DNA from: Dictyostelium discoideum
Lineage: Eukaryota
Direction: 5' to 3'
Assembly: GCA_000004695.1 (NCBI GenBank)
Contig: CM000152.2
Coordinates: 352,001-416,000, forward strand
DNA length: 64,000 bases
Below are positions 36,979-38,010 of the stretch, in pieces. Each line of letters opens with the position of its first letter. Position 1 is the first letter of the stretch. The notes beneath the pieces are model-generated. The model worked only from the letters and a program-made list of their open reading frames with translations. It was not told the DNA's origin and ran no database searches. The translations under genes and the position numbers were made by a program.

Positions 36979-37116
36979 AATTTTAAATGTTTAATTGATT
37001 GTGATATTAAATAAATATTATTTGTTAAAAAATGAAATTATTATTAACAATATTATCAAAATAATGTTATATTGTTTTTTTACTCCGTCATTTGGTATTT
37101 TTTCATTTTTTTGTTT
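36979..37116. repeat. Left arm of a 138-bp inverted repeat, about 97% identical to the reverse complement of 37872..38010
   Basis: aattttaaatgtttaattgattgtgatattaaataaatattatttgttaaaaaatgaaattattattaacaatattatcaaaataatgttatattgtttttttactccgtcatttggtattttttcatttttttgttt versus the reverse complement of the right arm. Differences: c/t once, tt insertion once, g/t once. Confidence 0.9.
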
Positions 37117-37596
37117 GTTTAATTGGTAAATAAATTCATCAGTTGAGTTTGAAAATAAAATATCAATTTTACCATTTTCATAAAAATAAGTATAATTTGT
37201 AAAATTACCAAAACAACGAATAATTTGATCATTTTCAATTGAACAACTTGTAACAGTTGGTAATTCAAAATAAAATTCAGTACGTGTAGTTTGGTTACCA
37301 ATTGAAATTGAAATTTGATTCCTTCCACAACCTTTTGGAATTCGGAAGAGAATATATCATTGGAATTATCAATACCTTTAATAGTTGTATTATAATTATC
37401 CATGAATGAAAGAGTTTGTAAACTATTATTATTTATTATTACATTTACATTATATAATGTATAGTTTACAAGTTGACCAAGTACTGATAGTGGTAGTGAT
37501 GGTTGTGATGATTTACAAAGAATGAAATCAATTTGGATAACATTTGATTTTTTACCATTTGCAATTAAATATAAATTTGAATTTTTAAAAGTTTGA
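37067..37596 (-). pseudogene. Frameshifted member of an uncharacterised small gene family, paralogous to 39070..39262, overlapping the left inverted-repeat arm
   Basis: The minus-strand reading is ...NGKKSNVIQIDFILCKSSQPSLPLSVLGQLVNYTLYNVNVIINNNSLQTLSFMDNYNTTIKGIDNSNDIFSSEFQKV, then a 1-nt deletion near 37345, then IPKGCGRNQISISIGNQTTRTEFYFELPTVTSCSIENDQIIRCFGNFTNY...KQKNEKIPNDGVKKTI*. There is no ATG at the 5' end, and the deletion is defined relative to the 39-kb copy. Confidence 0.5.
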
Positions 37597-37622
37597 TTTG
37601 AAGGTGTAAATGATTAAGTTGT

Positions 37623-37922
37623 TTGTTTAATATGGATTCATTTTCATTTAAATTTAATAATAATTATAAAACAAATGAAGTTTATTTAAATGTTTGTATT
37701 GAACTATTACCAATTACTAATATTGTATTAAATTCAACAATTCAAACATTTCAACCAACAATAACAATAAATACATTACAACCTCAATTAAATAGTTCGG
37801 CAGAGCAAGAAAATAAAGAAAATAAAACCAACAGTGACAGTTTTAGTTCAAATGAAAACATATTAAATAAGAAACAAAAAAATGAAAAAATAACAAATGA
37901 CGGAGTAAAAAAAACAATATAA
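37623..37922 (+). other. 99-codon plus-strand ORF inside the inverted duplication whose last 15 codons are the mirror copy of the minus-strand gene's C-terminus
   Basis: Ends ...KKQKNEKITNDGVKKTI*, encoded within the right IR arm. The upstream part (MFNMDSFSFKFNNNYKTNEVYLNVCIELLPITNIVLNS...) has no recognisable domain. Confidence 0.3.
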
Positions 37923-38010
37923 CATTATTTTAATAATATTGTTAATAATAATTTCATTTTTTAACAAATAATATTTATTTAATATCACAATCAATTAAAC
38001 ATTTAAAATT
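37872..38010. repeat. Right arm of the 138-bp inverted repeat
   Basis: See the left arm. The arms are separated by 755 bp. Confidence 0.9.

Follow-up and report, generated by a model that had tools for sequence, protein, structure and literature searches.

A palindromic relic of a Tgr-family gene in Dictyostelium discoideum AX4 and its probable origin by in-situ inverted duplication

The inverted repeat at positions 36979-38010 of the window, the whole 64-kb stretch of Dictyostelium discoideum AX4-type DNA analysed here, is very probably the remnant of an in-situ head-to-head, tails-out inverted duplication of a tgrA-like Tgr gene. The fragments between its arms are a pseudogene of the Tgr (IPT/TIG plus Ig-like) family. 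The arms are the juxtamembrane and transmembrane codons, the stop codon and the 3'UTR of a tgrA-like gene and not transposon ends. The locus sits between a TM2-domain gene and, on its right, DDB_G0278169 (39453-40295, minus strand, strain AX4); the two gene copies are referred to below as the TM2-side and the ATPase-side copy. The window DNA has a G+C content of 23.5%, and the proteins nearest to the window fragments are those of Dictyostelium discoideum.

Structure of the palindrome in AX4

Positions 36979-37116 and 37872-38010 are reverse complements of each other, with 97.8% identity over 139 aligned positions (MAFFT; blastn without low-complexity filter). The arms differ by two mismatches and one indel, an A7 versus A8 run, and are separated by a spacer of 755 nt (~0.75 kb). 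At lower identity the inverted repeat extends outward (36894-37119 versus 37869-38093, 86% over 229), where the flanks are only ~69% identical and the similarity fades gradually with no sharp terminus. The inverted repeat scores 234 bits, whereas no minus-strand self-match exceeded 68 bits in 20 first-order Markov surrogates of the window (blastn, low-complexity filter off). With dust filtering, the self-comparison by blastn did not detect the arms at all; they are visible only with the filter off.

That the palindrome was collapsed or chimerically joined during assembly has practically no chance of being right. AT-rich, repeat-rich DNA is difficult to assemble (PMC12745789), but an independent chromosome-level AX-type assembly (L001, GCA_054883475.1) recovers window positions 30000-47406 as one HSP at 99.88%, and between 36850 and 39400 its sole difference is 3 nt within one poly-A run. 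L001 shows the same palindrome, frameshift and A7/A8 asymmetry, which are therefore not assembly artefacts. In addition, two further strains, with loci L002 (GCA_054859385.1) and L006 (GCA_054859355.1), carry homologous, structurally different palindromes at the same site. The inverted duplication with near-identical arms described in the initial annotation is confirmed by these data, base for base in L001.

We named the segments of the gene in transcription order N, M (TIG), A5, A3, B and T, with a prime for the minus strand; the layout in the window is T' A3' A5' / B T. On the minus strand, the left arm (36979-37116) is segment T' of the TM2-side copy and holds the last 32 codons, the stop codon and ~39 nt of 3'UTR. 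Its coding part (37116->37018) retains the ancestral frame, ending in ...KQKNEKIPNDGVKKQYNIILIILLIIISFFNK and a stop, which is also found in both L002 copies and in the TM2-side L006 copy. The degenerate outer continuation of this arm (36894-36978, minus strand, ~69% identity) is the downstream 3' flank of the same copy. On the inner side of the arm lies segment A (A5+A3; 37117-37629, minus strand), the Ig_TgrO1-domain region of the TM2-side copy, a pseudogene with 91.5% to the L006 protein by tblastn. The lesions of this copy are frameshifting deletions of 1-2 nt, a TTA>TAA stop and the absence of the 5' half. Its segment B (254 nt) is deleted next to the arm at an A-rich site, with the junction ...CCAATTAAA/C/AAACAAAAAAATG.

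At the centre junction (37623-37629) the 5' boundary of the minus-strand A meets the start of a plus-strand B, with TTTA/TAAA microhomology. This segment B (37626-37871, plus strand; …MDSFSFKFNNNYKTNEVYLNVC…PTITINTLQPQLNSS…; tblastn 90.6%) belongs to the ATPase-side copy, as does the right arm (37872-38010, plus strand), which is segment T with A8 instead of A7. The extra A in the A-run gives a +1 frameshift, and the right arm therefore ends prematurely in …KKTI with a stop codon at 37920-37922. Its degenerate outer continuation (38011-38093, plus strand) is again 3' flank, into which the inverted repeat extends outward. Neither window copy has an intact reading frame: the 5' two thirds are missing, and what remains is broken by frameshifts, a stop codon and the 254-nt internal deletion. 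Neither is represented in the AX4 protein set.

The enclosed sequences had been read as divergent paralogous fragments; they are instead consecutive segments, A and then B, of one ancestral gene, because L002 and L006 hold continuous A-B-T open reading frames. In intact copies segment B directly follows segment A (L002 left arm; L006 15217-16287). In the window, segment A survives only in the minus copy and segment B only in the plus copy. The earlier placement of shared 3' ends inside the arms stands insofar as the shared tail does lie there. The tail is longer than the roughly 15 codons plus stop then assigned to it, since the ancestral frame in the left arm runs for 32 codons, and it encodes a transmembrane segment.

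Tgr family identity and the nature of the arms

After frameshift correction, the minus-strand sequence 37629->37117 matches Pfam PF24612, the ‘TgrO1-like immunoglobulin-like domain’ (Ig_TgrO1), with an E-value of 3.2e-6 and 27.7 bits, just under the cut-off of 27.9. A third copy in the window, described at the end of this report, reaches 30.5 bits. The orthologous full-length copy in L006 contains two PF24612 stretches (76.7 bits) and a PF01833 TIG domain (36.9 bits). As a protein query, the frameshift-corrected window fragment returned only 4 matches, none of them a named Tgr protein, and the reconstructed 677-aa L006 protein found 39 Dictyostelium IPT/TIG/Ig E-set membrane proteins. The L006 protein matches the AX4 chromosome-6 ‘immunoglobulin E-set domain-containing’ proteins Q54EH0, Q54EL4 and Q54EL9, for which the sources give no tgr names, at 50-55%, and a chromosome-1 member at 34% identity. 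By inspection, L006 exon 1, which reads MKIIFLFIFIFVFLISK…, encodes an N-terminal signal sequence. The C-terminal tail, …KKQYNIILIILLIIISFFNK followed by the stop in the window left arm, L002 and L006, likewise appears by inspection to hold a single transmembrane segment, its 17-residue hydrophobic run being what is expected of one.

In supplementary material, tgrA genes have DDB_G02916xx identifiers and tgrO genes DDB_G0268xxx identifiers. Judging by these DDB identifiers and the same-strand tandem arrangement, the relic probably falls on the tgrA side of the tgrAHIO clade, which duplicates rapidly (PMC12745789). Tgr genes encode type I membrane proteins and are known to occur head to head and also as partial duplicates and pseudogenes (PMC12745789; bioRxiv 10.1101/2025.10.22.684067); dictyBase lists 26 tgr pseudogenes. 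Numerous head-to-head pairs, a same-strand tgrA cluster, frequently occurring partial fragments, tgrAHIO genes inserted into new positions and interlocus conversion have all been reported, and which tgr copies stay intact differs by strain (bioRxiv 10.1101/2025.10.22.684067; PMC12745789). Contrary to the earlier view, the structure is not without an explanation, as its fragments are now placed in a family with documented arrangements of this kind.

Two tandem arrays contain 8 genes whose 3' ends each share 78-84% identity with the B and T segments of the window; all of these 3' ends are directly oriented. One array (L007) lies on the same contig as L006, ~100 kb away, and the other is L008; both are same-strand arrays, and the tails of their genes read …KQKNEKIPSEGVKKQYNIILII…. 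The arms are therefore ordinary gene 3' ends and not transposon termini. Near-identical inverted arms ~0.75 kb apart would also fit a foldback or MITE-like element with terminal inverted repeats that captured a gene 3' end and inserted here, and with such transposons the structure shares arms of ~140 nt around less than 1 kb. However, this reading, one of the candidates in the initial annotation, is largely refuted and highly improbable. No direct repeat is common to the two flanks, …AAAAAATGGA/arm and arm/TTTATTAAAG, so that the target-site duplication sought there is absent, and sharp termini are absent as well: beyond the arm edges the inverted similarity continues at lower identity and decays outward. 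The arms also vary in length among strains (138 nt in the window, ~600 nt in L002 and ~1,213+117 nt in L006) and are always collinear with the gene, the 600-1,300 nt arms of L002 and L006 being coding sequence of the same gene.

The distribution of the arm sequence does not resemble that of a mobile family either. There are exactly 2 copies in the 64-kb window and 2 at the same site in each of L001, L002 and L006, and none in L003-L005. In L007 and L008 the arm sequence occurs only as direct-orientation gene 3' ends, and no other inverted arm pairs are present within the roughly 190 kb examined. The dispersed copies that a foldback/MITE family would have are thus missing from the window and from L001-L008, and the outgroup loci lack the whole gene insert rather than a unit bounded by terminal inverted repeats. 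No match was found by Rfam at the gathering threshold across the whole window, by Rfam at E of at most 1 for 38150-38620, or by an ARAGORN tRNA scan, indicating no tRNA-linked retroelement context and no known ncRNA. In contrast to foldback and MITE transposons, the locus has no target-site duplication, defined termini or dispersed family in the DNA examined, and its arms are host-gene coding sequence.

Larger versions in other strains and the proposed history

Syntenic loci were recovered through the neighbouring gene and the window fragment in L002, L006, D. citrinum (L004) and D. dimigraforme (L005). D. dimigraforme P0004, a paralogue whose locus (L003) is not syntenic, was left out of the reconstruction. 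In D. citrinum and D. dimigraforme, ~1.1 kb separates the TM2 gene from the DDB_G0278169 orthologue, and blastn and tblastn found no Tgr-like DNA or coding similarity in ~20 kb of these syntenic loci. In L006 the interval is 6.3 kb and contains two head-to-head copies of one gene, with the layout T' B' A' m' - spacer - N M A B T, where m' is the partial M of the truncated copy. Its arms are 11371-12581 versus 16476-15270 (94.5%, 1,213 nt) and 12706-12822 versus 15268-15152. In the full-length ATPase-side copy, an intron (GTAATTATT…TATATTTAG) separates exon 1 (MKIIFLFIFIFVFLISKIDGLSFSFPKG) from ~2 kb of coding sequence. Its TM2-side partner is 5'-truncated, yet has a continuous A-B-T open reading frame of 357 aa. 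The L002 layout is T' B' A3' / A5 A3 B T, with arms of ~600 nt (9335-9940/10306-10934) and a spacer of 365 nt, and its left arm is one uninterrupted A3-B-T open reading frame. These larger head-to-head inverted versions bear out the palindromic segmental duplication that had been listed among the candidate explanations.

The centre junctions of both shorter forms can be obtained from the L006 sequence. In-silico deletion of L006 11908-15420 (3,513 bp) gives …GAATCCATATTAAACAAACAACTT…, which is the window centre junction at 37623-37629; both window arms are thus traceable to one contiguous source at the same locus. Deletion of L006 12431-15811 (3,381 bp), between the two AAGTTGTT sites that are the only ones on the plus strand of the region, reproduces the L002 junction apart from 2 mismatches in 88 nt. 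Most simply, the AX4 and L002 lineages would each have undergone their own deletion across the centre of an L006-like ancestral form. At 8 sites in segment A that distinguish the L006 copies, both shorter forms are mosaic (6 versus 2 in the window, 5 versus 3 in L002), a pattern that singles out neither L006 copy as the orthologue of the window's segment A. Derivation of the window from L002 by a spacer flip plus deletions was considered and rejected, because the window keeps 6 native junction nt (TGTTTA) that are lost in L002.

Parsimony and the empty outgroup sites suggest that, among the three discoideum-clade haplotypes, the L006-like form is ancestral. This polarity is based on the empty outgroup sites and on the promoter, signal-peptide exon and intron, which could not be regenerated from stumps. 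The reverse polarity, in which the window type is the original small inverted duplication (B and T copied upstream of a minus-strand gene) and the L002 and L006 arms expanded later, requires about as many events when the comparison is confined to the window and L002. Expansion of inverted repeats also has precedents elsewhere, for example in plastids. We nevertheless consider it improbable, as the L006 promoter, signal-peptide exon and intron cannot regrow from a window-type relic and a single deletion of L006-type sequence reproduces each of the window and L002 junctions.

Starting from an L006-like ancestor, the proposed history would begin in the D. discoideum clade with a complete gene copied between the TM2-domain gene and DDB_G0278169. 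The inserted gene would have comprised at least 350 bp of upstream DNA, a signal-peptide exon, one intron, ~2 kb of coding sequence and the 3'UTR. An inverted copy of its 3' 1.2-1.3 kb would then have arisen beyond its promoter. In the order that we infer for the deletions, a ~3.5-kb centre deletion in the AX4 lineage, at TTTA microhomology, would have joined the A start of one copy to the B start of the other. A further deletion of 254 nt would have taken B from the first copy, with small frameshifts and a stop codon accumulating. The terminal 138 nt, the sole sequence left in both copies, would finally have been homogenised by arm-to-arm gene conversion. The hairpin-mediated rearrangement proposed earlier may describe the later decay by centre-spanning deletions, but not the origin of the arms.

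A simple one-step model does not explain one feature of the deletions. Both terminate in a shared 16-nt motif, GATAAACAAACAACTT, located where segment A5 begins, in mirror-image copies, and the chance of such a coincidence is ~1-2%. It is a tentative idea, which we regard as doubtful, that the window and L002 types both arose from a short-lived, near-perfect palindrome centred on GATAAACAAACAACTT, each defused by an asymmetric centre deletion; this would explain the mirror-image motif at two junctions. If true, the locus would offer a natural time series in which a palindrome within a eukaryotic gene family of the allorecognition type forms, undergoes arm-to-arm conversion and collapses.

Arm homogeneity, related systems and the third relic

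Over a 133-nt core, the window arms differ from each other at 2 of 133 positions and from the L002 and L006 arms at 6-11. Both window arms have GGAGT, where the others have GGAGC, and AAACATTTAAAAT, where the others have AATTATTTGAAAA. The L002 and L006 ATPase-side arms share the variants ACAAACAAT and CACAACTAATT, which the window ATPase-side arm lacks. The grouping of the L002 and L006 arms by position places the duplication before the split of these two. The substitutions shared by the window arms suggest recent arm-to-arm gene conversion in the AX4 lineage, in which one arm overwrote the other. Homogenisation of the core by conversion is our proposed reason for its 98% identity against ~69% just outside. 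Segment B of L002 is also identical between arms (246/246). Gene conversion between inverted repeats is known for larger palindromes (PMC6790999).

Alternatively, selection could keep the arms alike as a functional repeat, for instance a 138-bp hairpin formed by read-through from DDB_G0278169 and feeding RNAi, or a bidirectional terminator. The drop from 98% in the arm core to ~69% in the outer flank and the retention of both tails in all three haplotypes are compatible with selection. Gene conversion alone, however, accounts for the homogeneity. There is also a frameshifting indel between the arms, the flanking coding sequence is ridden with lesions, and the arm is only 78-84% identical to its paralogues, too low for efficient siRNA targeting. 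A functional repeat is thus quite improbable, and the structure is a pseudogene relic of no demonstrated function.

The locus resembles several known systems. Head-to-head tgr pairs such as tgrB1/tgrC1 belong to the same superfamily, with IPT/TIG plus Ig-like E-set domains, a signal peptide and one transmembrane segment. They share with it the divergent orientation, birth-and-death with truncated copies and strain-variable intactness (bioRxiv 10.1101/2025.10.22.684067; PMC12745789). Unlike in those pairs, both members here are copies of the same gene, AX4 keeps only complementary stumps, and the locus lies outside the tgrBC hotspot. The tgrA-type same-strand arrays contain the closest full-length relatives (72-73% aa, ~80% nt), with the same C-terminal tail …KQKNEKIPSEGVKKQYNIILII…, but they are direct repeats on one strand, whereas the copy here is isolated and inverted-duplicated. 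The spaced inverted arms, concerted evolution and decay by deletion recall primate sex-chromosome palindromes and plastid inverted repeats (PMC6790999), which are on the kb-Mb scale rather than the hundreds of bp found here. In contrast to gene-bearing palindromes, the arms here consist only of a pseudogene tail, for which selective maintenance is not evident. As in fold-back/template-switch inverted duplications, the inverted copy adjoins its source, although in L006 the repeat has its inner boundary 2.3 kb away from its partner instead of at a short hairpin loop. Junctions with 4-8-nt microhomology across the centre are a feature shared with microhomology-mediated palindrome deletions (PMC10622511; PMC3907307).

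Within the tgr family, the locus is an unremarkable instance of known behaviour, unusual only in that its head-to-head partners are the same gene. A search of the literature on the neighbouring AX4 genes DDB_G0278165-175 found no paper on this locus. The apparent AX4 anomaly is explained away as a tgr pseudogene relic and carries little weight alone. It does provide a base-resolved example of off-cluster insertion, inverted partial duplication, microhomology-mediated deletion and gene conversion of a tgr gene, processes that have lately been described for the family (PMC12745789; bioRxiv 10.1101/2025.10.22.684067), and it exemplifies strain differences in which tgr copies stay open.

A third relic is located to the right of the palindrome, on the plus strand at 38966-39255. 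It consists of the end of exon 1, intron 1 (GTAATTATT…TATATTTAG) and a mid-gene Ig_TgrO1 piece (39066-39255), with the N-terminal two thirds deleted. The mid-gene piece is 84.6% identical to both L006 copies, its closest relatives, and its divergence exceeds that between the main copies. The minus-strand open reading frame inside the palindrome is indeed a frameshifted homologue of this copy, as first noted (37258-37457 versus 39066-39255, 82% over 201 nt). Next to it, a complete exon-1 relic, MKIIFLFLFLFVFLISKLMDLIHQK (38952->38878, minus strand), is 86.6% identical to L006 exon 1 (13637-13755). Inverted copies of the exon-1/intron-1 boundary form a small palindrome at 38853-39014 with perfect 43-nt arms (38853-38895/38972-39014). 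The whole segment 38695-39348 is missing from L002 and L006, and the third relic is either an older copy or a separate event.

The relic also affects annotation and mapping. The AX2 gene models here, for ‘hypothetical proteins’ of 106 and 150 aa, almost certainly reflect spurious gene calling on the pseudogene stumps, and the arms will confound short-read mapping at the locus.

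A second palindrome and the segment that carries it

A second, smaller palindrome with perfect 43-nt arms is located at 38853-39014. Its arms are copies, in opposite orientations, of the boundary between exon 1 and intron 1 in the tgrA-like gene whose relic forms the main locus, and the palindrome includes a minus-strand relic of the whole signal-peptide exon. The arms are perfect, whereas the adjacent third fragment, a mid-gene Ig_TgrO1 piece, is 15-18% diverged from its relatives. The entire segment holding both this palindrome and that fragment (38695-39348) is missing in the syntenic loci of two further strains, L002 (GCA_054859385.1) and L006 (GCA_054859355.1), where its flanks are just 18-61 bp apart. 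The segment is either an insertion in the AX4 lineage or an old relic that was lost in the other lineage.

The strongest self-matches within the window come from simple or low-complexity coding repeats on both strands that are long and very similar to one another (44500-45130, 54005-54190, 17745-17985 and 31318-31770). Their blast hits show period shifts of 3-6 nt, and these repeats have no relation to the inverted duplication.

A GC-richer element nearly identical between strains

A GC-richer element is present at ~38303-38480, within a side region spanning 38260-38480. The window, L002 and L006 agree in it at 176 of 178 positions; the DNA around it shows just 86-91% identity and many indels in the same comparison. 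The element occurs in one copy only in all DNA examined, and it was found neither in the syntenic loci of the outgroups D. citrinum and D. dimigraforme nor in the tandem-array loci of tgrA-type genes. About 60 nt upstream lies ACCCATAA (38260-38267), which resembles the upstream sequence element that Dictyostelium ncRNA genes carry. The GC-richer element is a candidate for an unannotated ncRNA gene. An Rfam search gave no match for it, at gathering or at E<=1, and its RNA fold z-score on the plus strand is only -1.3.

Gene models and open reading frames

In the AX-type assembly L001 (GCA_054883475.1), automated annotation has spliced the pseudogene stumps into 'hypothetical proteins', at 8140-9772 (window ~37620-39252) and 10001-10731 (window ~36660-37390). 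One model protein, P0001, has 106 residues and the C-terminal end …NDGFVFLGEENDRFLND; another, of 150 residues, joins the stump of segment B and the gene's 3' tail to the third fragment over 1.2 kb. These models are probably annotation artefacts.

In L006, a strain labelled D. discoideum, the 5'-truncated inverted copy at 15217-16287 still contains an uninterrupted 357-residue ORF that runs across the Ig domain and segment B and on into the transmembrane tail; it is annotated as a 390-residue protein. Its full-length partner has apparent frameshifts at ~12500 and ~11880. Therefore, which copy is 'open' varies by strain.
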